Shown here one piece after another: positions 17,296 to 46,165 of a stretch of 64,000 bases of DNA. Numbering within the stretch: the stretch's first letter is position 1; each line of letters begins with the position of its first letter. The stretch is taken from the NCBI GenBank assembly GCA_035403545.1, contig DAONFJ010000008.1, forward strand, positions 4,384 through 68,383. Direction: 5' to 3'. Under the pieces are notes generated by a model, which saw nothing but the letters and a program-made list of their open reading frames with translations, was not told where the DNA came from and ran no database searches. This DNA comes from Spirochaetota bacterium. Lineage in GTDB: Bacteria > Spirochaetota > UBA4802 > UBA5550. Position numbers and translations under genes: made by a program.

Positions 17296-17943
17296 CTACC
17301 TGTTCTCACTTGCAGCGTACTGCACGGCTATCTTTGTCAGTTCCGAAGAATTGCCTATGGAGAGTTTTTCCCTGATTTTTCTTCTATGGCTCTCCATTGT
17401 GTTTACATTAATGTTAAGCCTTTTTGCTATTTCATTTCTTTTATAGCCTTTACCTATAAGCCGGAATATTTCAAGTTCTCTTCCGCTAAGGAGATATATA
17501 TCTATCTTTTCATTATCCTGCGAACCGTAAATATGTTTTGTTGCAATTTTATTGGATATTGAACTGCTGAGATAGATTTTATTGTCCATTACAGCTTCAA
17601 TTGCAGACACGATATTTTCAGCAGCTTCCGCTTTGGCGATATAGCCTTTCGCTCCGGCCTTTATGGATTTTTCGGCGTACAAAGTCCCGTCATCCATTGA
17701 CATTACCAGAATTCTTACATGGGGGAATCTCGCCTTTACTGCACCGACAAGTTCTATCCCATCAATATTTCCTTTTAGTTCTATGTCAACGATTACAAGA
17801 TCCGGTTCTGTTTCAGAAATTATTTTTATTGCGCTGTTAGCTTCTTCAGCTTCACCGCAAATTGTGTATCCGGCATTCTCTTCAAGAATGCTTTTAAGCC
17901 CTTTTCTTACTACCGGGTGATCATCAACAAGCACAATCTTCAT
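17296..17943 (-). CDS. NarL/FixJ-family response regulator (REC + LuxR HTH); start corrected from 18066
   Basis: MKIVLVDDHPVVRKG...VIVDIEL...LSGRELEIFRLIGKG...TMESHRRKIREKL. RBS GAGGAGG precedes ATG 17943. Confidence 0.92.
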   Translation of the reverse strand: MKIVLVDDHPVVRKGLKSILEENAGYTICGEAEEANSAIKIISETEPDLVIVDIELKGNIDGIELVGAVKARFPHVRILVMSMDDGTLYAEKSIKAGAKGYIAKAEAAENIVSAIEAVMDNKIYLSSSISNKIATKHIYGSQDNEKIDIYLLSGRELEIFRLIGKGYKRNEIAKRLNINVNTMESHRRKIREKLSIGNSSELTKIAVQYAASENR

Positions 17944-18195
17944 TTTATCCTCCTCACTCAGATCTGTTCTGCAGCGCTGAACCCTGTGCCCCGGTTCATT
18001 ATGTCGGTATATTTCCTGTTCTGCCTCTCCGGCTGGAGCATAGCGGAATGCCGGAATACCATGCACCTCATTTCATTTAAAGAGGTGATCCGGATATTTA
18101 ACTGCGCTGACAATACAAAACCTGAATGACAAATTTATTAATAACATACACTAAAACATGAAACAATACTATTCAAATTATACACTTTATGACAA

Positions 18196-18234
18196 TAACA
18201 CATTCGTGTAATAATTTTTAACATGAATGTGTTA
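18196..18234. promoter_or_regulatory. Two TAACAC-N4-GTGTTA-type inverted repeats upstream of the NarL-type gene
   Basis: TAACAC-ATTC-GTGTAA (18196-18211) and TAACAT-GAAT-GTGTTA (18219-18234). The same motif occurs at 32599-32660. Confidence 0.55.
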
Positions 18235-20023
18235 TCATTTGCAGGATTTTAACAGTAACTGTAAAACCGCAATCTTCATTGCTTTCCGCTGAAAATTCGC
18301 CGCCAATCAGATCTGTTCTGTATTTCATTATACTCAGCCCCATGCCCTGATCTTTTTTCCCGGGATCAATTCCCGCCCCGTCATCCCGGACTGAAAGATA
18401 AACTCCGGGAGATCTTTTTAATGTTATGTATATATTTTTCGCGCCGCTGTGCTTCACCGCGTTGTTTACAGCTTCCTGTGTTATGCGGTAAAGCTGGGAT
18501 GAAACAAAATCATCTCCTATATCAGTAACCCCGTAAGATTCAACTTCACAATTAATATTAAACATATCCCGTGTGCTTATGGCGAGCTGATCAAGCGCCA
18601 GGATAAGCGTATTATTCTGAATATTGACAAGCGGCAGTCCCCTGGTAATCTGCCTGCACACCTGTGTCGCTTCGCGGACCAGATCTGAAATTTCAGTTAT
18701 TCTGCCAATTGCGGCTGGAGCTGACCCGTTAAGCTGAGTTTTTACGGTCTTCAGCATAAAGCTCACTCCTGTAAGTATCTGCCCAAGGCTGTCGTGAAGT
18801 TCATGCCCGATCTTCTGACGCTCTCTTTCACTGATATCTATTACTTCGCGTTCGAGCTTCCGGAGTTCATCCCGTGCAATGAATAGTTCAATAATTTTAC
18901 TTATCCTTTCAGTTATGGTATCGAAAAAACTTTTATCCTTGCAATCGAATAATGCTTTGCCGCAGTCTTTATCCGTATTTGAATAACCGATTGTTATCTT
19001 ACCGGTTATATTCCCTTCGGCTACAAGCTCACGTTCCAGTACTGCATCAGGATTTTTAAAATTGGAAGAGACATATTCTTTCCCGCAATAGGAAATAACA
19101 GCAAATGAACGCTCGGGGTAACTTAAAGCTTCAGGGATAAGGAGAACGGTCCTGAAAAGTACATGATCAAGTGTTTCTGAACTATCCTCCATTATTCTGG
19201 ATATATTATACAGACAGTTTAGCTCTTTCAGGAGTTTCTCCTTTTCCAGAAGCAGGATTCTCATCTGTTCTTCAGTATTCTTGCGAAATGTAATGTCCGT
19301 AAGCAGGCCCTTAAATCCGCGGAACACTCCGCCCTCATACACCGGGCTGATTGATGACCTGAACCAGACGATATCACCGCTCATCTTCACCCATTTATAT
19401 TCTTCAAAAAACGACCCTCCCGCAACAGGCACTTCAAACTGTTCCTTTGCTTTTGGGATATCATCCTTTGTTATGAACTCGTGGAATGATCTGCCTATTA
19501 CATCTTCAGGTGCAAAATCGGTGTAGTGCTTAATGCGGGGGCTGATATAAGTCAGGATTCCCTTTTCATCGGTTGAAAAAATAATGTCACTGATATCCTC
19601 AACCAGGCTCCGATAATTCTCCTCGCTTTCGAGAGTTTTTTCGTGTGCTTCAAAAAGATCAAACACCATTTCAATTGATGAGAGAAGAACATATTCCCCT
19701 GTATTTTTTAGCGCATAGCCGTACCGTGTTATCTTTCTTACTTTCTCAACCATCTCGCGTTCAATATGCGCGGTAAGGAACAATACCGGAACATTTTTTC
19801 TGGATAAAATTTCCTGCGCGGCCTTGTTCCCGTCAATTTCTCCACCGAGGTCAATATCCATAAGAATAAGATCAATCTTGTTGTTAAGTGCAACATCAAT
19901 AGCTTTTTTACCGCTGCCTGCAGCCATAACAGTATATCCATTTCTCTCAAGCATTACTTTATTTGCAAGACAGGTAATGGCATCGTCTTCAACAATCAGT
20001 ATTATTTTTCTTTCTGGTTTCAC
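18218..20023 (-). CDS. REC-PAS-HisKA_3 histidine kinase (NarX/UhpB type), likely partner of the NarL-type regulator
   Basis: N-terminal REC, PAS, ERERQKIGHELHDSLGQ H-box, QEAVNNAVKHS and DDGAG ATPase motifs. Confidence 0.9.
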   Translation of the reverse strand: MKPERKIILIVEDDAITCLANKVMLERNGYTVMAAGSGKKAIDVALNNKIDLILMDIDLGGEIDGNKAAQEILSRKNVPVLFLTAHIEREMVEKVRKITRYGYALKNTGEYVLLSSIEMVFDLFEAHEKTLESEENYRSLVEDISDIIFSTDEKGILTYISPRIKHYTDFAPEDVIGRSFHEFITKDDIPKAKEQFEVPVAGGSFFEEYKWVKMSGDIVWFRSSISPVYEGGVFRGFKGLLTDITFRKNTEEQMRILLLEKEKLLKELNCLYNISRIMEDSSETLDHVLFRTVLLIPEALSYPERSFAVISYCGKEYVSSNFKNPDAVLERELVAEGNITGKITIGYSNTDKDCGKALFDCKDKSFFDTITERISKIIELFIARDELRKLEREVIDISERERQKIGHELHDSLGQILTGVSFMLKTVKTQLNGSAPAAIGRITEISDLVREATQVCRQITRGLPLVNIQNNTLILALDQLAISTRDMFNINCEVESYGVTDIGDDFVSSQLYRITQEAVNNAVKHSGAKNIYITLKRSPGVYLSVRDDGAGIDPGKKDQGMGLSIMKYRTDLIGGEFSAESNEDCGFTVTVKILQMITHSC

Positions 20024-22521
20024 GTCCGGCCCGCTGTTTTATCAATATTATTCCGTTCGGGATCAAGCCAGCTTTTAAGCAGTCCGTCAACTTCTTTAAT
20101 TTTTATCGGTTTAGCCATATAGTCATTCATCCCGGCTTTAATACACTTTTCTCTATCTCCTTCCATTGCGTGCGCCGTAAGAGCAATAATCAGAACATCC
20201 GGATTCAGGACTCCGGAAATTCCGCTTCTGATCTCAACAGTTGCCTGGAATCCATCCATAGACGGCATCTGGCAGTCCATAAAAACTGCACTATAGTTCT
20301 TCCGTTTAAGCGCTTCAATGCATTCAATTCCATTCGAAGCGATATCAGTTTCATATCCTAGCTTTCTCAGCATTGCATTGGCTACAAACTGGTTTGTTTT
20401 ATTGTCTTCAACAAGAAGTATAGATGCCGATTCCCGTTGCGCGTTATTATTTACCAGGCCCGGTTCATTGAGATGCCGCTGATATTTTTCAAGCTGCTTC
20501 TGCAGAATAATGGTGAACCAGAACAATGATCCTTTATTTTCACCGCTCACTACGCCGATTTCACCGCCCATTAGCTCAACTATCTTTTTTGATATCGCAA
20601 GCCCGAGGCCTGTACCGCCGTATTTTCTGGTTAATCCTCCGTCAATCTGTTTAAATGGAATAAAAAGATCTTTAATATGTTCCCCGGGAATTCCTGTTCC
20701 CGTATCGCTAATTTCAAATTTGAGTTTAACTGTGGTTTCATCTTCATCTGCAAGCCGAATGTTAACATCAATTCTACCTTTATCGGTAAATTTAATGGCA
20801 TTGTGCGATAAATTTGTTACGACCTGCCTGAGTCTGCCGGAATCTCCGCAGAGCGAACATGGTACTGCATCATCAATACTGAAATTAAATTCAAGATTTT
20901 TCTCTATAGCTTTAACAGCAAGCATTTCAACAATGTCGTACATGGCCGTCTGAAGGTTGAAGTTGTGACGGTCAAGTTCAAATTTCTGAGATTCTATTTT
21001 TGAAAGGTCAAGAATCTGGTTGATTATCGCAAGAAGATTATCACCGCTGATCCGCATAATCTCAATAAATTTTTTCTGTTCATCGTTAAGCGGAGTTTCA
21101 AGAAGCAGGCTTAATATTCCGATTATCCCGTTCATCGGAGTTCTGATTTCATGACTCATATTAGCCAGGAACTGGCTCTTTGCAATATTTGCCGCTTCAG
21201 CAGCTATAGCAAAATCGTGAGCCCGTTCAAGCGCAGCTTCAAGCTGTTGATTTGTCTCAATCAGTTCATTCTCTGCTACCTTTCTGGCGGTAATATCGAT
21301 AATAGAAACCATTCCTGAAGCTTTTCCGTTGTATATAACTGTATTTCCTTTCAGCGAAACCCATTTTTTAATACCATTTTTTGCTGTTATGGAAAATTCG
21401 TATGACATATTGTAATTTTCTGAAAGCTGCCGCATCAATGCCCTTTTCCTGACAACGGGCTGGTATTCAATATCTACAAAATCCCAGAAATTCATTTTAT
21501 AAAGCTCATCTTCCGAATAGCCGGATATTTCAACTCCTACAGGATTTGTATACACCCAATGATGTCCATGGTGAATCATAATTGCTACGGGTGACGATTC
21601 CGTGAGGGTACGGAATTTTTCCTCACTCTCGCAGAGAGAATTATTTGTAGAAATAAGTTCTTCATTTGCCGCTTCAAGCTGCTCCAGCGTCGCGTGAAGT
21701 TCTTCGTTTAATGCGGAAAGCTCAAGATTTTTTTTCTGCAGTTCATCTTCGGCATGTTTACGTTCTGTTATATCTTCGGCAATTCCGGCAAAACGGAAAA
21801 TTTTTCCATTCTGATCAAAAACAGGATGGCTTCTTGCCCTGATCCACCGTATATCTTTATCATCTCTTACTATACGGTACTCATACGCTGAAGGAAGACA
21901 GTCTGCCCTCATTTCACGATGAATTTTCAGAATCCTTTCCCTGTCATCAGGGTGAATGATTTCACTGAAAGACCAGGGATTGTCATAAAAACTCTTACAG
22001 GTGCGTCCCCAGATTTTTTCGTAAGCAGGGCTTATATATAACATTGCACCATTACTTATGTCTCGAAGCCAGAATAATTCATTTATACTTTCAGTAAGCT
22101 GGTGAAAATTTGCTTCGCTGGCTTCAATTTTTTTTCTGGACTGAAAAAGTTCAAGAGCCATTTCAATCGATGATATAAGAATATATTCTCCTGAGCCTTT
22201 TGTCACATAACCGTATCTTGTGATGGATTTTACCTGATCAACAATTTCTTTACCGGTATGAGAAGTAAGAAATATAACAGGAAGATCCCTTATCTCCAGA
22301 ATTCTGCGGGAAGCCTCTGCGCCATTCATTCCGGATCCAAGATTAAGATCTATCAGTACCAGGTCAATATCTGCATTGTCTTTTACAGCTTCCAGGGCCC
22401 GTTCTCCACTGGAAACAGCCTGGACTTCATATCCGTTCTTTCTCAGCATTGCTGATTCCGTCAGTGCAATAATTATCTCATCTTCAACAATCAGCAGCTT
22501 TTTATTTTTACTATTTACCAT
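20020..22521 (-). CDS. Hybrid kinase REC-PAS-coiled coil-PAS-HisKA-HATPase-REC
   Basis: FLANMSHEIRTPMNG, DTGTGI, GGTGLGLAI, C-terminal REC (FMDCQMPSMDG). Confidence 0.92.
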   Translation of the reverse strand: MVNSKNKKLLIVEDEIIIALTESAMLRKNGYEVQAVSSGERALEAVKDNADIDLVLIDLNLGSGMNGAEASRRILEIRDLPVIFLTSHTGKEIVDQVKSITRYGYVTKGSGEYILISSIEMALELFQSRKKIEASEANFHQLTESINELFWLRDISNGAMLYISPAYEKIWGRTCKSFYDNPWSFSEIIHPDDRERILKIHREMRADCLPSAYEYRIVRDDKDIRWIRARSHPVFDQNGKIFRFAGIAEDITERKHAEDELQKKNLELSALNEELHATLEQLEAANEELISTNNSLCESEEKFRTLTESSPVAIMIHHGHHWVYTNPVGVEISGYSEDELYKMNFWDFVDIEYQPVVRKRALMRQLSENYNMSYEFSITAKNGIKKWVSLKGNTVIYNGKASGMVSIIDITARKVAENELIETNQQLEAALERAHDFAIAAEAANIAKSQFLANMSHEIRTPMNGIIGILSLLLETPLNDEQKKFIEIMRISGDNLLAIINQILDLSKIESQKFELDRHNFNLQTAMYDIVEMLAVKAIEKNLEFNFSIDDAVPCSLCGDSGRLRQVVTNLSHNAIKFTDKGRIDVNIRLADEDETTVKLKFEISDTGTGIPGEHIKDLFIPFKQIDGGLTRKYGGTGLGLAISKKIVELMGGEIGVVSGENKGSLFWFTIILQKQLEKYQRHLNEPGLVNNNAQRESASILLVEDNKTNQFVANAMLRKLGYETDIASNGIECIEALKRKNYSAVFMDCQMPSMDGFQATVEIRSGISGVLNPDVLIIALTAHAMEGDREKCIKAGMNDYMAKPIKIKEVDGLLKSWLDPERNNIDKTAGRT

Positions 22522-22563: not shown

Positions 22564-24759
22564 CTATTCAAGTTCATGCGCATTTTTAATTAATTTCGGC
22601 ACGTCAAGTATATACGCAACTTCGCCGGTACCAAGGATAGTTGAACCGCTTAGCCATTGAAGCTTACTGAATATTTTACCCATAGGTTTGATTACTGTCT
22701 GAAACTCTCCGATGAGATCATCAACAACAAGTCCGATTTTTTTTCTTGAATATTCGACTACTACAACTTTCGGTTTTTCCGGCTCTTCGCCTGATTCTCT
22801 AAAGAATTCCCGCATCTTCATAAAAGGGAGAACTTCTCCTCGCAGATTAATATAATTTCCGCCTTCTTTAGAATCAAGTTCTTCTTTACGTATCTCAGTG
22901 CATTCCGTAACCATGTCAAGGGCGAGTACATAATATGAATCGGCAATCCTTACCATGAATCCGTCAATTATAGCCAGAGTCAGCGGGAGATGTATCCGTA
23001 CCGTTGTACCAAGCCCCTTTTCGCTTTCAAGAAAAACATTACCTCGGAGAGATTCAATATTTTTCTTTACAACATCCATTCCTACACCGCGTCCCGAGAT
23101 GTTCGACACTTCTTTCGCCGTGGAAAATCCCGGCTGAAAGATGAATTTATATAATTCATCATCCGTATATGCCTGATCCGGTTTAGCAAACCCCTGTTCT
23201 ACAGCCTTATTAAGAATACTTTCCCTGTTCAGGCCGTCGCCGTCATCGGATACTTCAATCACGATACTTCCGGTTTCATGATAAGCATTCAATGTGAGGA
23301 TACCTGCGGCCGGTTTACCGGCCTTCTCTCTCTCGGCCGGGGTACCGATTCCATGATCTACCGAGTTACGGATAAGATGTATTAATGGATCGGACAGTTT
23401 ATCTATAAGGGTCTTGTCGAGTTCTGTTTCACCGCCGATTATCTTCAGTTCAACACTCTTCCCTTTTTCCCTGCTGAGGTCACGGACTACTCTTTCAAAT
23501 CTGCTGAAAGTCTCACCGATAGGAACCATCCGTATCCCCATTGTACTGTCTCTTATCTCTTCTATGAGTTTTGACATATCAGTAACAGCTTTCGCTATTC
23601 CCAGCTTGTCGTCTGATTCGGAGATCTGTTTTACGTTTGAACCTGTTATTACAAGTTCACCGATAAGATTTATAAGATGATCAAGTTTCTCCGCATCTAT
23701 TCTTATGAGTTTACGGTCGCTCGCCTCTCTCTTCTTTACATTTTCCTGTTTGCTCAGGGCCGCATCCAGAATGTGTTTCTGTATCATCTTCTCTTCAACA
23801 AGTATCTTACCCACAAGAAGGTCTTCCGGCGGTTTCTTTTTTTCTGCGGAAAGTTCCGCCTGCAGCTCAAGAGCTATTTCGAGTTCAGTATCAGTCAATG
23901 ATCCTATCTCGCGAAGCATATCCCCGATCTTCATAGGTGTCTCGGGCAGTTCTTCTATAAGTTTAACATATTCTGCTATACTGGATTTCGGAGGGAGTAT
24001 CCTTATATTGCAATCGTTCATAACGAAATCAAAAACATCCTCAATCTCTTTCTTGTTTATGCTGCTTCTGAAATCCATTTCAAATCCGAGATAACAGAGA
24101 TCTGCTTTCATCTCACTGCCGTAAGGCATGTCTTCATAAACAGTTTTAATGTTCTGTATTTCACCTTTCTCGCCCAGATAACTGATAAATGAATATGGAT
24201 CAAGTCCGTCTTTAAAAACATTTCTTCCGAACCTCAGAGATATATGCCAGCAATCGTTGCATACCAGCATCTCATCCGGATCTGCGCATGATGATTCCAG
24301 TTCAATAACAGTCTCAAGTTCCTTCTCTTTTAACTTTTCGGTTTTTTCAGCATCCGGAATAAAATTATTCAGACGTTCTTTAAGTACTGCGAACAGGGAT
24401 TCGCTCTCATCGTCAAGCGGGAGTTCCTCTTTACTTTCATAATGGTCAAGGAGTATCTGTATAAAATCATGGCATTCAAGTAGAAGGCCGATTAATTCAG
24501 GGGTTATTATTACTGTTTTGTTTCGCGTGCACACAAGAAGATTTTCCAGGACATGCGCGAATTCGCCGATCCGTCCGAATCCGAACATCCCGGAATTTCC
24601 CTTAATTGTATGGGCAGTCCTGAAAATGGAGTTAATCGAATCTTCATTTGTACTCTCTTTTTCCAGCGCAAGAAGTGACATCTCCATTGAGTCAAGAAGT
24701 TCCCTGCTCTCGGTAAAATAGACATTTTTAAAATTCTTTTCGTTATTTATATCTGCCAT
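22564..24759 (-). CDS. cheA: Chemotaxis histidine kinase CheA
   Basis: P1 FRTAHTIKG, dimerisation LDHLINLIGELVI, HLIRNSVDHGI, GRGVGMDVVK, P5 LPLTLAII. Confidence 0.96.
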   Translation of the reverse strand: MADINNEKNFKNVYFTESRELLDSMEMSLLALEKESTNEDSINSIFRTAHTIKGNSGMFGFGRIGEFAHVLENLLVCTRNKTVIITPELIGLLLECHDFIQILLDHYESKEELPLDDESESLFAVLKERLNNFIPDAEKTEKLKEKELETVIELESSCADPDEMLVCNDCWHISLRFGRNVFKDGLDPYSFISYLGEKGEIQNIKTVYEDMPYGSEMKADLCYLGFEMDFRSSINKKEIEDVFDFVMNDCNIRILPPKSSIAEYVKLIEELPETPMKIGDMLREIGSLTDTELEIALELQAELSAEKKKPPEDLLVGKILVEEKMIQKHILDAALSKQENVKKREASDRKLIRIDAEKLDHLINLIGELVITGSNVKQISESDDKLGIAKAVTDMSKLIEEIRDSTMGIRMVPIGETFSRFERVVRDLSREKGKSVELKIIGGETELDKTLIDKLSDPLIHLIRNSVDHGIGTPAEREKAGKPAAGILTLNAYHETGSIVIEVSDDGDGLNRESILNKAVEQGFAKPDQAYTDDELYKFIFQPGFSTAKEVSNISGRGVGMDVVKKNIESLRGNVFLESEKGLGTTVRIHLPLTLAIIDGFMVRIADSYYVLALDMVTECTEIRKEELDSKEGGNYINLRGEVLPFMKMREFFRESGEEPEKPKVVVVEYSRKKIGLVVDDLIGEFQTVIKPMGKIFSKLQWLSGSTILGTGEVAYILDVPKLIKNAHELE

Positions 24760-24773: not shown

Positions 24774-25067
24774 TTATATTTTCTCTTTATAAAAAGTGAA
24801 CATTTTATTTAACCTGCTGTTCATTTCAGTTACCCTGAAACTTTTATCATGCAGATCCGCTTCACGCTTTAGAAAGAGAAGGAGCTGAAATCCCGCAGTA
24901 TCAGCTTCATCTACATCAGCAAGATCCAGCGTCAATCCCGGGCAGAATTTAAGTTCATTCAGCAGAATATCTTTCAGTTTCACAGCGGAGTATACGGTCA
25001 TCTCTCCAGTTAATTTTAAATGAAGATCTTCATTATCTGTTTTTTTTCTGATTATCTTAAGTCTCAT
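24774..25067 (-). CDS. STAS-domain (anti-sigma-antagonist-like) protein
   Basis: LKLTGEMTVYSA...LDLADVDEADTAGFQLLL. STAS genes are typical of F7/F8-type che clusters. Confidence 0.88.
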   Translation of the reverse strand: MRLKIIRKKTDNEDLHLKLTGEMTVYSAVKLKDILLNELKFCPGLTLDLADVDEADTAGFQLLLFLKREADLHDKSFRVTEMNSRLNKMFTFYKEKI

Positions 25068-25094: not shown

Positions 25095-25463
25095 CTATAC
25101 TGTAAAAAGTTTTTTTACAGCGTTAATAAGCTGCTCAGGCTGAAATGGTTTTATCATCCAGGCCCTGGCTCCAGCCTCTTTTCCCTCGTTTATCATATCG
25201 CCGCCTGCTTCGGTTGTCAGCATTATTACCGGTGTGTGTTTATAATTCCTGTCTTCTTTTATTTTTTTAAGCAGAGTAATTCCATCCATTTCAGGCATAT
25301 TGACGTCAGATATAAAAAGGCCTATGATGTGCTCTCTCATCAGATTAAGCGCATCCACACCGTTAGCTGCTTCAACCACTTCGTAGCCGGCACTCTTCAG
25401 CGTAAAAAGCAGGGACTGCCGTACCGCATTTGAATCATCAATAACCATTATTTTTTTTGACAT
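25095..25463 (-). CDS. cheY: CheY-like single-domain response regulator (start ATG 25463)
   Basis: MVIDDS...ISDVNMPEMDG...LTTE...MIKPF; adjacent to STAS-cheA. Confidence 0.88.
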   Translation of the reverse strand: MSKKIMVIDDSNAVRQSLLFTLKSAGYEVVEAANGVDALNLMREHIIGLFISDVNMPEMDGITLLKKIKEDRNYKHTPVIMLTTEAGGDMINEGKEAGARAWMIKPFQPEQLINAVKKLFTV

Positions 25464-25542: not shown

Positions 25543-26088
25543 TCATTGGAAATTCCCATCAATATTAGATAATTCTTCTATGTTTAATATGTTCTGCACC
25601 CTGAGAAGTATAACAAACTGATCGTCAAGTTTTCCTATACCTTCGACAAAGTCAGGTCTTATTCTGCTTCCGATTTCAGGTACAGCTTCAATATTACTTT
25701 CATAAAGTTCTGTTACAGCTTTTACTGAATCGATGATAACACCAATTGGAGTCTTATGATTATCATCGTCAACCTCCACCACAACAATTGATGTAGTGGA
25801 GGTTACCTTGAATGATGTATTATAGAACCTGGAATGAAGATCGATAATCGGCACAACCTCGCCTCTCAGATTTATTACTCCTTTTAAAAATTCCGGGACC
25901 CGCGGTAATTTAAAAACCTGTTTATATTCAATTACTTCACGTATTTCACTCACCTGTATTCCGAAAAGATCTTTCCCGAGCAGAAAAGTCAGGTAGAGCA
26001 CCAAATCACCGTCTGCAGATACAGTCATTTCACTTTCCGGATCAATGTTTAAAACATAATCTTCATCGGTTCTAATTATTTCTTCCAT
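25543..26088 (-). CDS. cheW: CheW scaffold protein (alternative start 26103)
   Basis: YLTFLLGKDLFGI...GVINLRGEVVPIIDL...GVIIDSV. Confidence 0.93.
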   Translation of the reverse strand: MEEIIRTDEDYVLNIDPESEMTVSADGDLVLYLTFLLGKDLFGIQVSEIREVIEYKQVFKLPRVPEFLKGVINLRGEVVPIIDLHSRFYNTSFKVTSTTSIVVVEVDDDNHKTPIGVIIDSVKAVTELYESNIEAVPEIGSRIRPDFVEGIGKLDDQFVILLRVQNILNIEELSNIDGNFQ

Positions 26089-26137
26089 TGCTTCACCTTC
26101 CATTTACTTATACTTATCGTGCCCCGATTTCTACCGA

Positions 26138-37051: not shown

Positions 37052-37606
37052 ATGAAACCAGCAGTAAACATACATATAGGGGATTACTACTCCAGCAGAA
37101 CACCTGTTATTATTACGACAATACTCGGACCATGCGCGGCTGTTTGTCTCTTTGACTCAGAAAATAAAATAGGGGGGATGAACCATATACTCCTCCCCGG
37201 AGACAGCCCTGCAGAAATTGATTCAGGCGATTCCAGATACGCAATAAATGCCATGGAACTTCTTATAAACCAGATGATGAAACTGGGTGCAAACAGGTAC
37301 AAACTGACCGCAAAAGTTTTTGGCGGAGCATCAATACTCTCCACAATTTCTTCTGAATTCGGCATGGGGATGAGAAACATTGAATTTGTTGTGGATTTTC
37401 TGTTAACTGAAAAAATCCCGATCACCAATTATAATTTCGGGGGAGTAGACTCCAGAAGAATTTATTACCACACCGACACAAATGTTGTATTATTAAAAAG
37501 AATTAAATCAAGAGAAGTAATTAGAGAATTCGTCAATGCCCGGCAAAAGCGCCATGATGTTGAAAAAAAAATACAAAAAGCTTCCTCTATCGTATTCTTC
37601 GACTGA
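37052..37606 (+). CDS. cheD: Chemoreceptor glutamine deamidase CheD
   Basis: TILGPCAAVCL (catalytic Cys), GGMNHILLP, AKVFGGA, GMRNIEF, RRIYY. Confidence 0.92.
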   Translation: MKPAVNIHIGDYYSSRTPVIITTILGPCAAVCLFDSENKIGGMNHILLPGDSPAEIDSGDSRYAINAMELLINQMMKLGANRYKLTAKVFGGASILSTISSEFGMGMRNIEFVVDFLLTEKIPITNYNFGGVDSRRIYYHTDTNVVLLKRIKSREVIREFVNARQKRHDVEKKIQKASSIVFFD

Positions 37607-37725: not shown

Positions 37726-40700
37726 TCACTCCTCCGGTGTAAATATAATATCTACTGCAGTTCCGTTATCTTTTTTAATTTTAAGCACTCCCCCGATCTG
37801 CTCCGCCAGGGCAGAAACCAGATTCAGTCCGAAACCGCCGGACATTGAAGATACAACGTCATCAGATACCCCCACTCCGTCATCTTTGATAGAAATACTT
37901 ACTTCATCATTAACCTTAGTAACAGTAATTACAATTTCCCCTTCTCTCCCCTGAGGAAAGGCATATTTGAAAGCATTGGTAATAAGCTCATTTATAATAA
38001 TTCCGAGAGGGAAAAGTATCTTGGTATCAAGCACAAAATCCGAAATATCCTTCCTGATCTTTACCAGCCCATGATTCTCAAAAATAACGAAAATCTCATC
38101 TATAAATTTTTCAAGATACTCTTTCACGGACATTCTGCGGTAATCTTCCGATCTGTAAAGTTTGTCATACATAATCATCATGCTCTGAACACGGTTCCGT
38201 GCGTCGTTAAGTGCTGTTACCGCAGCATTATTGTTTATTGATGACGCCTGGAGCATAAGAAGCCCGGAAATTGTATTCATGTTATTCTTTATTCTGTGAT
38301 GCACCTCGCTAAGAAGCATCTCCTTCTCCTTAAGAAGGGAATTTATCTTTTCAAAAGACTCTCTGCTCTCAGTAACATCCCGGTTGATTCCCCTTCTCCC
38401 TGCAAAAATTCCATCCTTATCATAAACTGCACGGCACGCATGATTGATCCACTTTACACTTCCGTCTTTCCTTGTTATTCTGAATTCAATTTCATTTGCC
38501 TGTGGAATCTCCTCAACTTCACTCCAGCTAAGACATGGACTTTCCGAATCCTCCTTAAAAACAATTCTGCCGAGCAGGAGCGGATCATTCATAAATTCAG
38601 TATTTGTATAACCTGTAATTCTTTCACATGCGGGTGAACAGTAAATCATTCTGCCATCAGTACCGACCCAGAACTCCCAGTCGTAAGTATAATCAGCCAC
38701 CGTTCTGTACTTTTCGAAACTGGCTTCGAGTTCCTTTCTTATCATTTTTTCTGAGAGAGCAATTGCTATATTGTCAGCAAGGTGCTCAATCAGATTTATA
38801 AGTTCCCCGGTAAACATCCCTGTTCTTTTATCATTCAGCTGTATCAGTCCGAAAGTATTATCACCTGTTCTGAGAGGTATAAGAGCTACGGATTCATAGC
38901 CCATACCGTTACATCTGTTCCTTGTATGCGCACGCCTGTCTTCATCTGTTGTCGTTCTCAGCAGATCTGTAGTGCAGTTTGACCAGAAGCTTCCATGTTC
39001 CGTGAAGAATGGTTTCGAAGGATCAAACCTTGCACTTATAATATTTCCGCACATGCACTCAACAACAGGATTACCTATATCGTCCCTGAGGAGCTGCCCC
39101 TTAATATCATAAGCGCAGAGTGAATTTTCCAGTTTTATAAATTCAGATGGAAAACCTTCAGCTTCAAGATACGGATAATCTTCGCCGTCCTTCATGCGTA
39201 TACCGGCAGCTTCACATCCGGACCATTTTTTCAGAAAAGTTATAACCATCTTCATAAGATCATGCAGATCACCGCTTGAATTAATTATACGCAGAAGATC
39301 CATTATTGCATTCTTCTCATGAGCAGCAGTTTCGCGCTCAGTTATATCCCTGCTGATTCCAAGCAGAGATGTAATTTTACCGTTTTTATATATAGGAGTT
39401 TTTAAAGTATCAAAATAACGGATCTCCCCTCTTATACAGGCTGTTTCATTTTCAACAACAACCTTTTCGCCTGAAAGCGCCCGAAAATCATCCGATTCAA
39501 AACCTCGGATTCCTTTTTTAATATTTCCCTTAACAAACTCTTCACCCCAGCCGCATTCAATATCGGTCTTCCCTATAAGGTTTTCCGGCCTGCTGTTTAA
39601 TCCCGATGCATAAACTTCGTTGCACATGACAAGTCTGAGACCGGTATCTTTAACGTAAATATAATCCGGAGATGAATTGATTATATTAAGCAGCATCTTC
39701 CGGCTCTCCTTCAGAGATGTCTCAGCTATTTTACGTTCGGTAATATCCGAGATAATGCTGTCATACTCGATGAGATTGTTATCATTGTCATAATGCGGCA
39801 CTGGCGTATTTCTCACCCATGAAACAGACCCGTCGCGGCATATAATCCTGTGTTCAACAGGATTAAAAATTGCCTTATTGATAATATCCGACGCGAACAG
39901 AATTACACGCCCTCTGTCATCTGGATATATTACCTTATACCATAGTTCGGGGTCAGATGTAAAATCTTCCGGAGTGTATCCGGTAATTGCCTCGCATCCC
40001 GGTCCATGGACAGTCTTCACCGGATTTTTTTTGTCTATATAAACTGTGTACACATAACCCACTACTGAATCAAAGAGGCGATTATATCTCTCATCCCTCT
40101 CCTTTAGAAGCTCTTCCGCTTTTTTACGGTCTGTAATATCCTCTAATATCGTCGCGAAAAAACCCTTCATAGTAGAATACGCTGTGACCTTAAACCACTT
40201 GTTCAGTCCGCGCGAATAGTTTTCAACAGAAATCTGCACGCCTGTAAACGCCACCCGGCCGTATTCCGGGATCCGGTAAGGTTCAATATCCGGCATAATC
40301 TCGGAAACTTTCCGCCCTGTTATAGCAGCAGCCTTTAAACCGGTATACTGTTCAAAAGCAGGATTAACCTCAAGAAAAATGTAATCAACGGGATTTCCCC
40401 GTTCATCAGCAACAATCTCATGCAGAGCGAATCCGTTTTTCATTCCTTCAAACAGCTCTTTGTATTTCTTATCTTTTTTTAACAGCTGTTTCTCGGTGAT
40501 TTTTTTTCCGGTAATATCCCTTGCTCCAAGAACTGATCCTGTACGGATTCCGGCCTCATCATAAATATTCCGTCCGGTAGCTTCGAACCACCGGTACGAA
40601 CCATCCTTTTTCCTTTGCCTGAATTCGACGTAACCTTCACCGGCAGAACAAATGCGCAGGATACCTTTAATATCTTCGTCCCTGGTTGACGGATGGGCAA

Positions 40701-41901
40701 GTTCCGGGGCCCATGTCCCGACGAGTTCCTCCGGCCTGTACCCCAGGACTCTTTCATATGAGGGCGATACATATTTGAAAAAACCTTCAGAATCAATACG
40801 CGCCACAAGATCGACCATGTAATCCGTAACATCACTAAGCCTCTCCTCGCTCTCCCTGTGAAGAGAGGAATAACGGTCGCGTTCCGACAATGTCCTGGCG
40901 AGTTTAATATTGCTGTAGCTCAGTCTGGAAATGATATTTGCAAGTTTTATATTGAAGGTCATTGCTGTGAAGATCGTATCCCGGCCACACCTTGGGACAC
41001 GGTTCAGGGCGTCGATATACTCCTCCTCATCAAAACCGTACCTGTGCGCCTGCGAACGGAACAAATCGTAATCTATAACATCGTCATCAAAAAAAAACTG
41101 CCCCACAAAAAGGTTACCAACATGTTTTCCGCCTACTTCAATCGGTGTTGCCATATCCCGCATGTTATTTTTGCATTTATACAGCTTATAAGTTCCGTCT
41201 GCTGTCCCGTTTGAAAGGACAGTATCGCTCTCTACGCAATTACGGCATGTGTCCGGATTTATCCGGTGAAATTTTGTACATATATCCTGCCAGCCGGATG
41301 TGACAAGAACTTTACCGTTAATGTCAACTATCGAAATAGTGATGGCAGTCAGAGAATAAAAATCATCCATGATAGACTGAAGCATCCGTATATCCACTAT
41401 ATCCGCGAGTTCAAGCAATCCTGTATCCCCGTCGGGGGAAAGAATGCTGTCAAGTTTGGATTTTACCATCTCCTCGCTCTTTCGAAGAACATCCGCCGAT
41501 TTTTTTAATTTTTCATGAGACGCGAAAAGTTCAAACGCCATCTCTATTGAAGAGAGCAGGACAAAATCACCTGAATTTTTTATGACATACCCGTAGCGGG
41601 TAATCTCTCTTACCATTTCCACAATTTTCTGTTCCGAGTGAGAGGTAAGAAAAACAATAGGAAGGTTCTTCTCCTGAAGAATCTGGCGTGCCGTTTCAGG
41701 GCCGTTTATACCGGGGCCTAAATCTATATCCATGAGAATAAGATCAATCGAAGTATCAGCCATAGCAGCTTCAACAGCATTTCTGCCGTTGTTCACCGTT
41801 ATAACATCATATCCGCTTCTTCTCAGCATTCTGGCTGTTACCAAGGCGATAACAGCCTCATCCTCCACAAGAAGAAGTTTTTTACTCCTTTCGATTTCCA
41901 T
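37726..41901 (-). CDS. Soluble kinase REC-PocR-multi-PAS-GAF-PAS-HisKA_2
   Basis: PocR-like GWQDICTKFHR...CKNNMRDMATPI; several PAS/PAC units; EVHHRIKNNM. Confidence 0.9.
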   Translation of the reverse strand: MEIERSKKLLLVEDEAVIALVTARMLRRSGYDVITVNNGRNAVEAAMADTSIDLILMDIDLGPGINGPETARQILQEKNLPIVFLTSHSEQKIVEMVREITRYGYVIKNSGDFVLLSSIEMAFELFASHEKLKKSADVLRKSEEMVKSKLDSILSPDGDTGLLELADIVDIRMLQSIMDDFYSLTAITISIVDINGKVLVTSGWQDICTKFHRINPDTCRNCVESDTVLSNGTADGTYKLYKCKNNMRDMATPIEVGGKHVGNLFVGQFFFDDDVIDYDLFRSQAHRYGFDEEEYIDALNRVPRCGRDTIFTAMTFNIKLANIISRLSYSNIKLARTLSERDRYSSLHRESEERLSDVTDYMVDLVARIDSEGFFKYVSPSYERVLGYRPEELVGTWAPELAHPSTRDEDIKGILRICSAGEGYVEFRQRKKDGSYRWFEATGRNIYDEAGIRTGSVLGARDITGKKITEKQLLKKDKKYKELFEGMKNGFALHEIVADERGNPVDYIFLEVNPAFEQYTGLKAAAITGRKVSEIMPDIEPYRIPEYGRVAFTGVQISVENYSRGLNKWFKVTAYSTMKGFFATILEDITDRKKAEELLKERDERYNRLFDSVVGYVYTVYIDKKNPVKTVHGPGCEAITGYTPEDFTSDPELWYKVIYPDDRGRVILFASDIINKAIFNPVEHRIICRDGSVSWVRNTPVPHYDNDNNLIEYDSIISDITERKIAETSLKESRKMLLNIINSSPDYIYVKDTGLRLVMCNEVYASGLNSRPENLIGKTDIECGWGEEFVKGNIKKGIRGFESDDFRALSGEKVVVENETACIRGEIRYFDTLKTPIYKNGKITSLLGISRDITERETAAHEKNAIMDLLRIINSSGDLHDLMKMVITFLKKWSGCEAAGIRMKDGEDYPYLEAEGFPSEFIKLENSLCAYDIKGQLLRDDIGNPVVECMCGNIISARFDPSKPFFTEHGSFWSNCTTDLLRTTTDEDRRAHTRNRCNGMGYESVALIPLRTGDNTFGLIQLNDKRTGMFTGELINLIEHLADNIAIALSEKMIRKELEASFEKYRTVADYTYDWEFWVGTDGRMIYCSPACERITGYTNTEFMNDPLLLGRIVFKEDSESPCLSWSEVEEIPQANEIEFRITRKDGSVKWINHACRAVYDKDGIFAGRRGINRDVTESRESFEKINSLLKEKEMLLSEVHHRIKNNMNTISGLLMLQASSINNNAAVTALNDARNRVQSMMIMYDKLYRSEDYRRMSVKEYLEKFIDEIFVIFENHGLVKIRKDISDFVLDTKILFPLGIIINELITNAFKYAFPQGREGEIVITVTKVNDEVSISIKDDGVGVSDDVVSSMSGGFGLNLVSALAEQIGGVLKIKKDNGTAVDIIFTPEE

Positions 41902-42031: not shown

Positions 42032-45000
42032 TTATAATTCACTTTTAATATCTACAAGCCACTTTCTGATCATGTCATCAATATCCCTGCGCTTAACCGG
42101 TTTGGAAAGGTAATCATTCATCCCCGCTTCAACGCATTTTTCCCTGTCTCCTTCCATAGCATGAGCAGTAAGCGCAATTATTGTCACATCAGGATTAAGC
42201 ACTCCGGAGTCACCACTCCTGATATATTTTGCCGCTTCATATCCATCCATATCAGGCATCTGGCAGTCCATCAGCACCAGGTGATAATCATTTTTTTTCA
42301 ATGCTTCAATACAATCATATCCGTTAACGGCATAATCTGATTTATATCCGAGTTTGCTTAAAATTGCAGTTGCTACATGGCGGTTTGTTTCATTATCCTC
42401 AACCAGAAGTATCCGTATTGAATTACGGTTAAAATCCGCTTCAGCTACACGCGCGGTTCTTCGTTTTCTTTTTACAGTTTCCTTCTGCTTTTCAACCGGC
42501 ACTGTAAAATAGAATACCGATCCGATTCCCGGAGTACTCTCAAGCTCAATACTACCGCCCATAATTTCGGAAAGTTTTTTTGAAATTGCAAGGCCAAGGC
42601 CGGTTCCGCCGTACCTCCGCGTCATGGCGCTGTCAACCTGGGTAAATGGCATAAAGAGTTCCTTTATCTTCTCTTCATGAATACCGATGCCGGTATCCTG
42701 AATCTTAAACAGAAGAACCGCTTCGGAATCTGATTCATTCACAATAGAAATGCGGATTGAAACACTTCCCTGCTCGGTAAACTTAACCGCGTTATGGGTA
42801 AGATTTGTAACAATCTGCCTTAGACGGCCGGAGTCACCTTTCAGTAAAAGAGGTACATCCGCGCCGATCTCTGCTGAAAGTTTAATACTTTTTCTTTCTG
42901 CTTTAAGTGAAAGCAATTCAATAATACCATCAATAATATTTTTCAGGTTAAAATCATAGCTTTCAAGCTGAAATTTTTCAGATTCAATTTTTGACAGATC
43001 AAGAATTTCATTAATTATAGTTAGAAGGGTATCACTGCTCGAGCCTGCAATTTCAGCATATTTTCTCTGCATCGGTTCAAGCTCCGTATCAAGAAGAAGG
43101 CTCAGCATTCCGATCACACCATTTATCGGAGTCCTGATCTCATGGCTCATATTCGCAAGAAACTGGCTTTTTGCCATATTGGCAGACTCGGCCTGAAGCG
43201 CAAGTGAATTGGCCCTCTTTACCGAGTCTTCAAGCTGCCTGATAGTTTTGACCAATTCCTCTTCCGCTCTTTTGCGTGCGGTTATTTCCATCACTGAAAC
43301 AATTCCTGCGGGCTCTCCCTTGTACTGGATGGAACCCCCTTTTAGTGATACCCATTTTTCACTGCCCTGCTTTGATATAATTTTAAATTCATACGGCAGT
43401 GGAAAATTCTTTGAGGCCTGGCGCAACTCGGCTCTTTCCCGGACAATAGCCCTGGATTCAGGCACAACGAAATCCCAGTAATTCATCCGATATAACTCAT
43501 CTCTGGTATAACCGAATATTTCTTCACCCGAATGATTAGTGTATACCCAGCGGTTTCCCTGGTGTATCATAATTGCGGCAGGTGATGATTCTGTAAGATT
43601 TCTGAAAATCGATTCGCTCTCATGGAGTTTGTCTTCAAGAATTTTTCTTTCCGTAATATCATGTATAATAGAAAAAAGCACTTTCTTGGTTTTGATTGCA
43701 ATACCGGCGGAAAATACCTCTACCGTATGGATGTCGCCGTTTGAAAGCTTGTGGGGAAAAATAAAGTGATTCTTTTTATTGGTAAATACCAGGTTGAGGT
43801 CATTTTTAATCTGTTCGGGGGTAAGCATATTAATTTCTGTTATCTTCATACTTATCAGTTCGTCACGCGTGTAGCCGTAGAAATCAACTGCTGAATTATT
43901 GACATCAACGATCATCCCGTCAGCAGGATCTATGAGCATCATGACTGCGTTATGCTCATAGAACATTTTCCTGAAACGCTCTTCGCTCTCGCGGAGCACC
44001 TCCTCGGCCTCCTTCCGGTCAGTTATATCCAGGAGATGCACTACAGTAAAAACTTTTTTATGCGCATCCGCATAAATTGAAATTCTCACTTCACAAATTT
44101 TCTGGGCTCCATCCTTTCGTATAATAGCCAGCTCATAACCTGATACTACATCATCACCTTTCTGGCGGGAGTAGTATCTTTCTGTTACAGCTTCCCTCTC
44201 TTCTTTATTTATAAATTCATAAAACTTACGGCCGGTCATCTCTCCTGAACTATAACCGAATACTTCACATACTCCTTCATTGACAAATGAAATGACCGAT
44301 TTGTTATCGATAATCATTATTCCGCCGTGAGTATTTTCAACAATAGACCTGTAGCGCTCCTCGCTCGATATCAATGCGACATTAGTAGTGATCAGCTCTT
44401 CATTTGCAGTCTCCAGCTCTTCAAGTGTAGATTGAAACTCCTCATTTATACTTTCAAGTTCGCAGTTATACTGTTTCATGTCATCTTCAAACAGTTTTCT
44501 CTCTGTAATATCGAGCGCAGTGAATGTGACACCCTTCGCAGGATCATTGATGTTAACAGGAGTTGAACTTAAAATTATGTTAATATTTCTTCCGTCTTTA
44601 CACTGCCACACTGTTTCAACAGTACCGGTTCCCTTCTCCACTATCTGATTATATCTTGCCTCTTCGTCATACTCATAGAGTTCATCTGATGGATAAAACT
44701 TTCTTGAGCTTTGATTTAAAATTTCCTCTTTTGAATAACCTGTCATTTTGCATAAAGTATCATTCGCTTCAAGTATCACCCGGTTTCTAACAAGGCCTAT
44801 GCCGACAGGCGCTGCCCTGAAAATACTTTTTATAGCATCATCTTTTTCAATGAGAATATTTTCTGATCTTATCTGCTCGTTATACAGTACAGCAATAGAA
44901 AGCTGATCAGCCATCTGGCACGCAAAAGTTATTTCATCCGGCATCCATTTATGGGTTTTATCCACGTGCCCGAAAGATAAAATTCCGGCATTCCGGCCTG

Positions 45001-46165
45001 CTATCCTCACAGCAGGCATAAGCATTGAAGTTATATTCAGCGGATTAAAATAATTTTCAATATATACGTTACTTTCGGGATCATCAAAAAAATCTTCATT
45101 AGTTATATATCTTGATGAAGAAAAAGCTTTAAAATTCTTTTCATAAACAGCTCTTACAATTACCTGCCCGGATGAATGCTTTCCCGCGGATAATTCATAC
45201 AGATCAACACACCTGAGGTTATCACCAGTCTCATCGAAAAGCCAGATACCGACTCTCGCCGCCCCTGATGCTTCAGCAGCTTTTTCTGTTATTACCGGAG
45301 CAAGCTGCGGGATGTTCCCTGAAACAAGAAAATGCGAAGCGGATACTTCAGATATAGCATTCTGCTGCAGTTCATACCGGTCAAGCGCCCGGTTCATTAT
45401 ATCTTCAGCATTTTTTCGGTTTGTAATATCTGAAATTATTCCCGTAGCACCGTGGAATACACCATCTCTTATGTCCGGATTGATATTAACCCTGACCCAT
45501 ATGACTCTCCCCGAAGATGTGACAGCGCGGAAATCAGTCAACCCGACATCAATACCGTTTTTTATATCAGTAAAAACATTTACTGCATTTTCACGATCAT
45601 CATTATATGCGAACTCAATAAAATTTTTACTCTTAACGTCATCCTGTTTGTATCCTGCCACTTTTTCGACTGCAGGGCTTACATACAAAACCTCACCATT
45701 ACTGTTAATTTCAAAAATAATATCTTTTACATTTTCAACAAGGGCCTGATATCTCTTTTCTCTTTCAGCGATTATATTATTCGCACGCTGAAGTTCGAGT
45801 GCCATTTCAATGGAAGAGAGAAGGACAAAATCCCCCGAGTTTTTTAAAACATACCCGTATCTTGTAATTGACCTGACATTCTCAACTATATCTTTTTCAG
45901 AATGTGATGTTAAAAAAATAACCGGGATGTCTCTATCCGCGAGAATTATTCTGGCAGTTTCCGTTCCGTCGATACCATCGCCAAGATTAATATCAGTAAG
46001 AACCAGGTCAATATCATGGTTACTGCTTACAAGCTGTACGGCTTCCTCACCTGTTGAGGCGGCAATAACATCGTAACCGTTTCTTTTGAGCATGGCACAC
46101 TGGGCAAGAGAGGTGATCATTTCATCTTCAACGAGGAGTAACTTTTTCTTTTTGTCATCAGTCAT
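42032..46165 (-). CDS. Hybrid kinase REC-PAS-GAF-PAS-coiled coil-PAS-PAS-PAS-HisKA-HATPase-REC
   Basis: FLANMSHEIRTPING, DTGIG, GGTGLGLAI, terminal REC LMDCQMPDMDG. Confidence 0.92.
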   Translation of the reverse strand: MTDDKKKKLLLVEDEMITSLAQCAMLKRNGYDVIAASTGEEAVQLVSSNHDIDLVLTDINLGDGIDGTETARIILADRDIPVIFLTSHSEKDIVENVRSITRYGYVLKNSGDFVLLSSIEMALELQRANNIIAEREKRYQALVENVKDIIFEINSNGEVLYVSPAVEKVAGYKQDDVKSKNFIEFAYNDDRENAVNVFTDIKNGIDVGLTDFRAVTSSGRVIWVRVNINPDIRDGVFHGATGIISDITNRKNAEDIMNRALDRYELQQNAISEVSASHFLVSGNIPQLAPVITEKAAEASGAARVGIWLFDETGDNLRCVDLYELSAGKHSSGQVIVRAVYEKNFKAFSSSRYITNEDFFDDPESNVYIENYFNPLNITSMLMPAVRIAGRNAGILSFGHVDKTHKWMPDEITFACQMADQLSIAVLYNEQIRSENILIEKDDAIKSIFRAAPVGIGLVRNRVILEANDTLCKMTGYSKEEILNQSSRKFYPSDELYEYDEEARYNQIVEKGTGTVETVWQCKDGRNINIILSSTPVNINDPAKGVTFTALDITERKLFEDDMKQYNCELESINEEFQSTLEELETANEELITTNVALISSEERYRSIVENTHGGIMIIDNKSVISFVNEGVCEVFGYSSGEMTGRKFYEFINKEEREAVTERYYSRQKGDDVVSGYELAIIRKDGAQKICEVRISIYADAHKKVFTVVHLLDITDRKEAEEVLRESEERFRKMFYEHNAVMMLIDPADGMIVDVNNSAVDFYGYTRDELISMKITEINMLTPEQIKNDLNLVFTNKKNHFIFPHKLSNGDIHTVEVFSAGIAIKTKKVLFSIIHDITERKILEDKLHESESIFRNLTESSPAAIMIHQGNRWVYTNHSGEEIFGYTRDELYRMNYWDFVVPESRAIVRERAELRQASKNFPLPYEFKIISKQGSEKWVSLKGGSIQYKGEPAGIVSVMEITARKRAEEELVKTIRQLEDSVKRANSLALQAESANMAKSQFLANMSHEIRTPINGVIGMLSLLLDTELEPMQRKYAEIAGSSSDTLLTIINEILDLSKIESEKFQLESYDFNLKNIIDGIIELLSLKAERKSIKLSAEIGADVPLLLKGDSGRLRQIVTNLTHNAVKFTEQGSVSIRISIVNESDSEAVLLFKIQDTGIGIHEEKIKELFMPFTQVDSAMTRRYGGTGLGLAISKKLSEIMGGSIELESTPGIGSVFYFTVPVEKQKETVKRKRRTARVAEADFNRNSIRILLVEDNETNRHVATAILSKLGYKSDYAVNGYDCIEALKKNDYHLVLMDCQMPDMDGYEAAKYIRSGDSGVLNPDVTIIALTAHAMEGDREKCVEAGMNDYLSKPVKRRDIDDMIRKWLVDIKSEL

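Follow-up and report, generated by a model that had tools for sequence, protein, structure and literature searches.

Chemosensory pathways that reach transcription through an embedded two-component system are already known. In R. centenum, CheA3 of the Che3 pathway phosphorylates REC1, a receiver of the kinase CheS3, and so controls the CheS3 kinase (He et al. 2013, PMC3868531). In M. xanthus, a chemosensory system (Che3) and a classical kinase (CrdS) jointly control a DNA-binding response regulator, CrdA (Willett and Kirby 2011, PMC3147164). For a further group, the F8 and ancestral F7 systems, published work has not yet settled what they do (PMC7184735, PMC11253619). Here, we describe a chemosensory (che) cluster in a stretch of 64,000 nucleotides of spirochaete DNA, hereafter the window (contig C8:4384-68383 of a draft genome of 3.7 Mb in 188 contigs, 79.6% complete, whose closest public relatives are uncultured Spirochaetota). 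To the known theme it adds a defined operator and an autoregulatory twist. Its operon runs through cheA into K1, a HisKA_3 kinase with an N-terminal receiver (N-REC), and is followed by the gene of a NarL-type regulator; the promoters of both the operon and the regulator gene carry arrays of one palindrome. We consider it quite probable that K1 and NarL control these two promoters, so that the cluster would be a self-regulating accessory chemosensory module. That phosphorylated CheA (CheA-P) also feeds the receivers of K1 and of the hybrid kinase K2 is, by analogy with R. centenum, about an even bet. To the combined explanation we assign a probability of roughly 0.55.

A che operon that runs into a kinase and a regulator gene

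From 46165 down to 17296 almost all genes lie on the minus strand, in the order K5, K4, (cheD, on the plus strand), K3, K6, cheW2, short cheR, a metallo-beta-lactamase-fold (MBL) gene, mcp, cheR, cheB, cheW1, cheY, a STAS gene, cheA, K2, K1, narL. The twelve genes from cheW2 to K1 form a 14.4-kb operon, and the NarL/GerE gene behind it is separately promoted. Between cheA and K2 there are 42 nt, K1 starts 4 nt before K2 ends, and a terminator scan showed no site that stood out inside the operon. The features are, in the direction of transcription:

32593..32660, minus strand: che operon promoter region, with three TAACAC-N4-GTGTTA palindromes 22-24 bp apart
32645-32660, 32621-32636 and 32599-32614, minus strand: the three che palindromes; the proximal one abuts a -35-like TTGTCT (32598-32593)
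32039..32536, minus strand: cheW2, first gene of the operon (Pfam CheW, 3.7e-34)
31396..32028, minus strand: short CheR, the S-adenosylmethionine-binding domain only, without CheR_N (Pfam CheR, 2.9e-41)
30761..31399, minus strand: MBL-fold protein (Pfam Lactamase_B, 3e-19), overlapping the short cheR by 4 nt
28376..30631, minus strand: chemoreceptor (mcp) with 4HB sensor, poly-HAMP, 34H signalling domain and C-terminal GFERY (Pfam)
27405..28298, minus strand: full-length cheR (Pfam CheR and CheR_N)
26236..27318, minus strand: cheB, REC and methylesterase (Pfam)
25543..26103, minus strand: cheW1 (Pfam CheW, 2.3e-32)
25095..25463, minus strand: cheY, a single-domain receiver that falls outside the N-REC clade in the tree of the genome's receivers
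24774..25067, minus strand: STAS protein of 97 aa, anti-sigma-factor-antagonist type (Pfam STAS_2, 3.9e-12)
22564..24759, minus strand: cheA, with Hpt, dimerisation, HATPase and CheW-like domains and no REC (Pfam)
20020..22521, minus strand: K2, a hybrid kinase with N-REC, two PAS, HisKA-HATPase and a C-terminal REC (Pfam)
18218..20023, minus strand: K1, REC-PAS-HisKA_3-HATPase, overlapping the end of K2 by 4 nt (Pfam; HisKA_3, 3.9e-11)
18166..18234, minus strand: narL promoter region, with two palindromes 23 bp apart at 18219-18234 (overlapping the K1 stop) and 18196-18211
17296..17943, minus strand: narL, NarL/GerE regulator (Pfam Response_reg and GerE, 7.3e-12)

Two starts differ from the list of open reading frames: for cheW2 the ATG at 32536 is backed by the paralogue (the list had GTG 32548), and for narL we place the start at the ATG at 17943, behind GAGGAGG, the listed GTG 18066 being unlikely. 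An earlier note on this DNA had recorded five kinases starting with a receiver, the succession cheA, hybrid kinase, HisKA_3 kinase and NarL-type regulator, and a window free of flagellar genes, cheZ, cheX and cheC. Pfam bears this out: all five kinase genes lie on the minus strand where that note had put them, each with an N-terminal Response_reg, their order after cheA is as described, and no sizeable open reading frame of the window matches a flagellar, CheZ, CheX or CheC domain. The STAS gene (24774-25067), a sixth kinase, K6 (32806-34401), and the palindromic operator arrays had been overlooked.

The tie between the che operon and the kinase with its transcription factor is real, both in physical linkage and in evolution. 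Orthologues of K1 (49-77% identity) are found in 13 genomes of four genera. In 11 of the 12 orthologous loci K1 comes immediately after cheA or cheA-K2 and before narL, and these clusters keep the whole order from cheW2 to narL. K2 orthologues follow cheA in the genomes G121, G124, G122 and G112; in G087 and G114, cheA is the only other kinase gene in the operon of K1. The adjacency of K1, a HisKA_3-HATPase_c kinase, to a REC-GerE regulator is likewise conserved.

The core of the pathway, a methyl-accepting chemotaxis protein (MCP), CheA and two CheW, is encoded together (Pfam MCPsignal, Hpt/H-kinase_dim/HATPase_c/CheW), and the adaptation enzymes CheR, CheB (CheB_methylest) and CheD are all matched in Pfam. 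Compared with E. coli Tsr, a 36H receptor, the chemoreceptor misses exactly 7 residues on each arm, and because of these symmetric deletions we take it to be a 34H receptor. Receptors of this class have been placed with F8 systems (PMC11253619). The C-terminus of the chemoreceptor reads GFERY (28376-28390), which fits x-[HFYW]-x2-[HFYW], the pattern of the CheR-tethering pentapeptide of Aer2-like and F8 receptors (PMC7184735). The STAS gene is kept between cheY and cheA in 32 homologous loci across phyla, proteobacterial ones included, and the best CheA matches beyond Spirochaetota (45-47%) lie in cheY-STAS-cheA-mcp-cheW-cheR-cheD-cheB clusters of beta- and gammaproteobacteria. Judged by the 34H receptor, the position of STAS and the homologous loci, the system looks F8-like. 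It does not look like the main motility system. Elsewhere the genome encodes FlhA (contig C48) and CheX (contig C175), and it has five CheA genes in total; the cluster is therefore one of several chemosensory systems in a flagellated organism.

Some neighbours deserve mention. The short CheR is present in all orthologous clusters, and its pairing with the MBL protein is kept in every orthologous and paralogous one. The MBL protein is weakly ODP-like (23.1 bits against a cut-off of 27.2; its paralogue on contig C24 scores 29.8 bits), and a search of PDB sequences returned only glyoxalase II-like hydrolases and no ODP structure. On these two grounds, the copy in the window being under the Pfam ODP cut-off, we do not take it for a bona fide ODP oxygen sensor, though it may be one. 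Beyond the cluster, the window holds three more chemoreceptor genes, at 4787-8178 (minus strand) and 56356-58482 (plus strand), namely a tandem pair of paralogues, each about 530 aa long, and a dCache receptor. On the 3' side of narL lie a gene for a 268-aa protein without Pfam match (16243-17049, minus strand) and, convergent and 1 kb beyond narL, one for a REC-PP2C (SpoIIE-type) phosphatase (14618-16246, plus strand). The trio of narL, the 268-aa protein and REC-PP2C is kept within the genus only, and we did not retain REC-PP2C as a conserved part of the module for that reason.

Putative operator arrays at the che and narL promoters

The palindromes occupy the two intergenic regions that bracket the che operon. 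In the che promoter a -10-like TATAAG lies 16 nt past the -35-like TTGTCT; the narL palindromes abut a -35 TTGTCA (18195-18190), and an 18-nt spacer then leads to a -10 TAGTAT. The three-site che array recurs with the same layout and 22-24 bp spacing in the orthologous clusters of G121, G124, G122, G112 and G114, where it abuts a weak -35-like hexamer (TTGTCT, TTGCCG, TTGTCA) with a -10-like element 16-18 nt on. Upstream of the che operon of G087 there is only one degenerate site. G121 and G025, the latter of another family, have the two-site narL layout as well, and single sites precede narL beside other REC-HisKA_3 kinases. The arrays track narL and the che promoter across three families.

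In three genomes, perfect copies of the palindrome are found only at this cluster, and copies with one mismatch elsewhere are as numerous as in the control; arrays in the source genome are also confined to the cluster. Apart from the che operon and narL themselves, no transcriptional target is therefore evident, and no wider regulon is visible. No operator stands ahead of K3, K4, K5 or K6, the only loose match being the stem of the K5 terminator, and there is no convincing equivalent in the paralogous cluster on contig C24. The suggestion of the earlier note that receptor signals are relayed to transcription thus stands as far as the tie between cheA, kinase and narL and the operator output are concerned, but not as a route to genes at large, since the target is the cluster itself. 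In relatives, TAACAC-N4-GTGTTA sites are also seen ahead of an N-REC-HisKA_2 gene (an operator pair in G121, L125:5723-5761) and, in G112, between divergent HisKA_2 and N-REC genes (L128:18465-18480). The regulon of other genomes may include N-REC kinases, though that of the source genome does not appear to.

Within the helix-turn-helix domain, the stretch NT(M/I)ESHRRxIR is common only to the NarL proteins of operator-bearing clusters, and the NarLs encoded on C24 and C10, which have no operator, lack it. Since this signature co-varies with the operator, and given how the operator is distributed, we infer that NarL binds the palindromes; because of the position of the sites, it would activate both the che operon and narL.

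Our model of the circuit is as follows. K1 is presumably the cognate kinase and phosphatase of NarL, as the pairing rule of the HisKA_3 family and the conserved adjacency suggest. Once phosphorylated, NarL would bind the arrays beside the two weak -35 boxes and so activate both the che operon and narL, and the circuit would in this way set the abundance of its own chemosensory array. CheA-P would phosphorylate the N-RECs of K1 and, where present, of K2. The phosphorylated N-REC would dimerise via its conserved alpha4-beta5-alpha5 face, and dimerisation would shift the alpha5-linker helix that leads into the PAS domain and kinase core, altering the balance between kinase and phosphatase output. 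Array activity would thereby feed back on array expression, much as CheA3 acts on REC1 of CheS3 in R. centenum. The same CheA might also serve the receivers of K3-K5, or it might not.

Several observations pull the other way. The binding of NarL to its putative operator comes from correlation only, and with the genome 79.6% complete further sites may be missed. Matches in the sigma-70 and terminator scans, promoter-like ones included, did not exceed those in shuffled sequence, and we used from these scans only the K5 terminator and the operator-adjacent -35/-10 pairs. In the genome G075, K1-narL occurs with no cheA before it. The paralogous cluster on C24 manages without any N-REC. The operon's own CheY and CheB have an alpha1 motif in common, SxxVRQ, which is absent from the N-RECs. 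Finally, the N-REC family is abundant in genomes lacking this type of CheA, and other phosphodonors must therefore exist.

The shared receiver and what may phosphorylate it

Five kinases in 29 kb carry the receiver. Besides K1 and K2 they are K3, K4 and K5, which lie upstream of the che operon together with K6 and cheD:

42032..46165, minus strand: K5, REC-PAS-GAF-PAS-HisKA-HATPase-REC (Pfam)
37726..41901, minus strand: K4, REC-PocR-PAS x n-GAF-HisKA_2 (Pfam)
37052..37606, plus strand: cheD, on the opposite strand (Pfam CheD, 1.3e-24)
34478..36772, minus strand: K3, REC-PAS-HisKA_2 (Pfam)
32806..34401, minus strand: K6, 5TM-LytS-PAS-HisKA_2, without REC (Pfam)

The five N-RECs share the motif LxVEDx...DLxLxDIxLG...FLT(S/A)H...ITRYGYxxKxxG(D/E)(F/Y)(V/I)LxSSIEM, and E13, D14, D58, T86, Y105 and K108 are invariant among them. 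They had been called near-identical; the shared subtype and motif are there, but with pairwise identities of 45-60% over 135 residues the term is too strong. A profile of the five finds only 12 N-REC kinases in the whole 3.7-Mb draft. About 0.1 would be expected by chance in a 29-kb stretch, against 5 observed, and the clustering of such kinases at this locus is more than chance. In a tree of the genome's 106 receivers, a single clade (support 0.999) holds the 11 full-length N-RECs of kinases together with two receivers that stand alone; the remaining kinase, on contig C36, was omitted from this check for its split N-REC. That kinase, of the N-REC-HisKA_2 type (L009:1215-4139), has its receiver spread over two frames, in open reading frames of 69 and 905 aa, possibly through a frameshift or an assembly error. 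The five N-RECs of the window are interleaved with six from elsewhere and are not mutually closest relatives, which rules out local tandem duplication as their source.

The family is very large. At E<=1e-30 the profile retrieves 3,785 cluster representatives (50% identity), and the best 150 of them, proteins of 156-1,799 aa, all have the domain N-terminally, no more than about 35 residues in. Of 50 sampled proteins, 45 have PAS, 25 HisKA_2 and 10 HisKA domains, and the N-REC is present in 95 of the 122 genomes of the class. Across 148 aligned N-RECs, conservation is highest at the active site and in alpha4-beta5-alpha5 (E..VE.V..ITRYGYVIKNSGDFVL.SSIEMAFELF), and all retain the acidic pocket, D58, T86, Y105 and K108. 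The most variable part is helix alpha1, which has its own signature in each orthologue group; that of K1, EDDxxTxLxxKxMLE, is found together with YGYALK in all four genera. Helix alpha1 is the main kinase-docking surface in work on two-component specificity. We read the shared part as pointing to a common output mechanism, i.e. phospho-dependent dimerisation acting on the alpha5-linker helix, and not to a common input. As alpha1 differs between orthologue groups and the family is huge, the shared receiver type is no evidence for a shared phosphodonor: the subtype is a trait of thousands of proteins. The equation of one shared module with one shared input, made in the earlier note, therefore has to be given up.

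What, then, phosphorylates the receivers of K1 and K2? Control might run one way only, K1 sensing through its PAS domain and driving NarL to switch the che operon on, with the N-RECs phosphorylated by kinases other than CheA (K2, the HisKA_2 kinases or others) and nothing flowing from receptor to transcription. We hold this to be doubtful, though several observations speak for it. Related che clusters (C24, C10, L018, L026, L029, L030, L032, L059, L083) have a HisKA_3-NarL pair lacking the N-REC immediately upstream, and L086 has a REC-HisKA_3 kinase at such a cluster. The C24 copy (C24:15800-31400) is a second version of the whole che cluster, with the same gene order and a CheA 79% identical; a hybrid kinase and NarL come after cheA there too, the hybrid kinase without an N-REC, and a REC-less HisKA_3 kinase is encoded upstream. 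One-way control would also fit an operator confined to the che and narL promoters and an N-REC family largely independent of this CheA type, 18 genomes having at least four N-REC kinases yet no such CheA. Furthermore, a stand-alone Hpt protein (C57) is available for relays through hybrid kinases; with Hpt-containing kinases existing as well, we rejected CheA P1 as the sole Hpt for the hybrids K2 and K5.

Position argues against it. In four genera K1 strictly closes the cheA operon. Among the loci inspected, HisKA_3 kinases that come after cheA have this family's N-REC, whereas those upstream of che clusters (C24, C10 and most proteobacterial loci) lack any REC, apart from two, in G025 and L086, with a weak or generic one. 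In G087 and G114 one-way control has to contend with an operon where the sole kinase besides K1 is CheA. Moreover, the N-REC clade takes in the two stand-alone receivers, on contigs C10 and C102, each encoded directly after an MCP-CheW pair; no other receivers of the genome are closer paralogues of the kinase N-RECs. These MCP-CheW-REC triplets have no CheA (L010:3839-9179 on C10, L011:5504-8187 on C102), and the one on C10 is preceded by a PAS-HisKA_3 kinase and a NarL regulator. HisKA_3-NarL pairs also adjoin cheY-STAS-cheA clusters in beta- and gammaproteobacterial genomes (L018, L026, L029, L030, L032, L059, L083, L086), a hint that this che class and NarL-type systems go together more widely than has been described.

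The full model of the earlier note went further than ours: CheA-P or the HisKA_2 kinases would feed all five N-RECs, and one array would gate a kinase battery and, through it, transcription at large. This seems unlikely to us. The crowding of 5 of the genome's 12 N-REC kinases into 29 kb speaks for it, as does similar crowding round the che cluster in G124 (10 of 20, within about 80 kb), G121 (6 of 16) and G087 (5 of 11); in the congener G124 a stretch of contig C18 (6000-86500) with ten N-REC kinase genes ends at the che cluster and looks like a kinase island. An N-REC-HisKA_2 kinase adjoins cheD and the che operon in G087, G112 and G114, i.e. in two genera besides the window's own (its PocR domain was detected in G087 and G112 and not at the G114 locus), and the operator pair of G121 precedes just such a gene. 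Genomes with this CheA type have more N-REC kinases, on average 7.3 against 2.5 (p = 3.5e-6), a comparison uncorrected for phylogeny or genome size, and six genomes have this CheA type and no N-REC kinase at all.

Yet the model of five served receivers meets the divergence of alpha1 among K1-K5, preserved within each orthologue group, the interleaving of the five in the tree, the N-REC-rich genomes without this CheA type, and the lack of a visible wider regulon. K3-K6, moreover, have no operator and are in separate transcription units. A strong hairpin terminator (42030-41999, minus strand; 14 pairs, 9 GC) follows the K5 stop directly, hence K5 is monocistronic; K4, cheD and K3-K6 likewise form units of their own. 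The congener G122 has the K5-K4-K3...K6 block intact, at a distance of 1.47 Mb from its che cluster. K3-K6 are probably best described as a lineage-specific kinase island, often near the che cluster, with an adjacency that is not universal; because of this, and since the counts point both ways, a functional tie to the che system is possible and not required. It is equally a long shot that the N-REC subtype is a dedicated acceptor for CheA-type kinases, with one accessory array gating a battery of PAS kinases (5 here, up to 10 in a congener) and the MCP-CheW-REC triplets acting as free-standing connectors; were it so, it would provide a general way to couple chemoreceptor arrays to two-component networks.

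Least probable is that NarL is a direct substrate of CheA, which would work beside K1 as its kinase or phosphatase, or that a sigma-factor partner switch of STAS and PP2C is the real route, with the N-RECs as side inputs: M. xanthus CheA3 does destabilise CrdA-P (PMC3147164), S. oneidensis Che1 is linked to the CrsR/CrsA-RpoS partner switch (PMC9855816), the STAS gene is widely kept beside cheA and a REC-PP2C gene lies close to narL, but that last adjacency is lost outside the genus, and no anti-sigma kinase or sigma-factor gene is seen in the cluster (nor a dedicated anti-sigma kinase in the window, by Pfam).

Comparison with known systems

We thus favour a self-regulating module in which CheA-P would feed K1 and K2. 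The locus is a compact, conserved and testable piece of wiring: a receptor array, CheA, a presumably receiver-gated HisKA_3 kinase, NarL and, at the promoter of the array itself, a defined operator of 16 bp. Should the model hold, this would be a third biochemically distinct route from Che to transcription, after M. xanthus CrdA and R. centenum CheS3, and a case of a chemosensory array regulating its own abundance. The organism is uncultured, and the components are soluble or easily truncated, so that the model can be tested in vitro and in E. coli.

The closest parallel is the Che3 cluster of R. centenum, where a che-like cluster also encodes a second kinase with N-terminal receiver, PAS and kinase core. 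Here this place is taken by K2 and K1, directly after cheA, an arrangement kept in four genera. The differences are substantial. R. centenum Che3 is of the alternative cellular function (ACF) type and comes from an alphaproteobacterium, whereas the spirochaete system looks F8-like and has a 34H receptor. Like other characterised ACF examples, CheA3 carries a C-terminal receiver, and the spirochaete CheA has none, a CheA-REC fusion being no formal class criterion. The partner of CheS3 is a single-domain CheY3, that of K1 presumably the DNA-binding NarL, and no operator-based autoregulation has been described for R. centenum Che3. The pathway of M. xanthus shares with our model a DNA-binding output. 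Yet CrdA is NtrC-type and CrdS NtrB-type, in place of a NarL/GerE-type regulator and a HisKA_3 kinase; Che3 lacks CheY, whereas the spirochaete cluster has cheY; and CheA3 makes the connection by acting on the regulator instead of on a kinase receiver.

The isolated receiver has a structural counterpart. PDB 3h5i (also 6oec) is of the same N-REC subtype, with 131 bits against the profile of the five receivers, and includes the YGYVxK...L..EMA motif region. It is a receiver domain alone, from a protein named by its depositors as REC/sensory-box/GGDEF, the output of which is a diguanylate cyclase and not a kinase, and its record is silent on the phosphodonor.

Autoregulated HisKA_3/NarL two-component systems resemble the output side, with a kinase beside a REC-GerE regulator and a 6-N4-6 palindrome before the regulator's own gene; B. 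subtilis ComA also binds a 6-N4-6 palindrome. The kinase here differs in having an N-REC and in ending a che operon, and the only other evident target is that operon. On the chemosensory side, the F8 system of P. syringae (cluster II) and the ancestral F7 systems of V. cholerae, P. aeruginosa and S. oneidensis (Che1) share with the spirochaete cluster the 34H receptor, the CheR-tethering pentapeptide and the cheY-STAS-cheA order, and further resemble it in having cheD and a poly-HAMP receptor. Their descriptions, as far as we know them, contain neither N-REC kinases nor NarL inside the operon, nor operator arrays on the che promoter, and it is in these features that the spirochaete locus stands apart.

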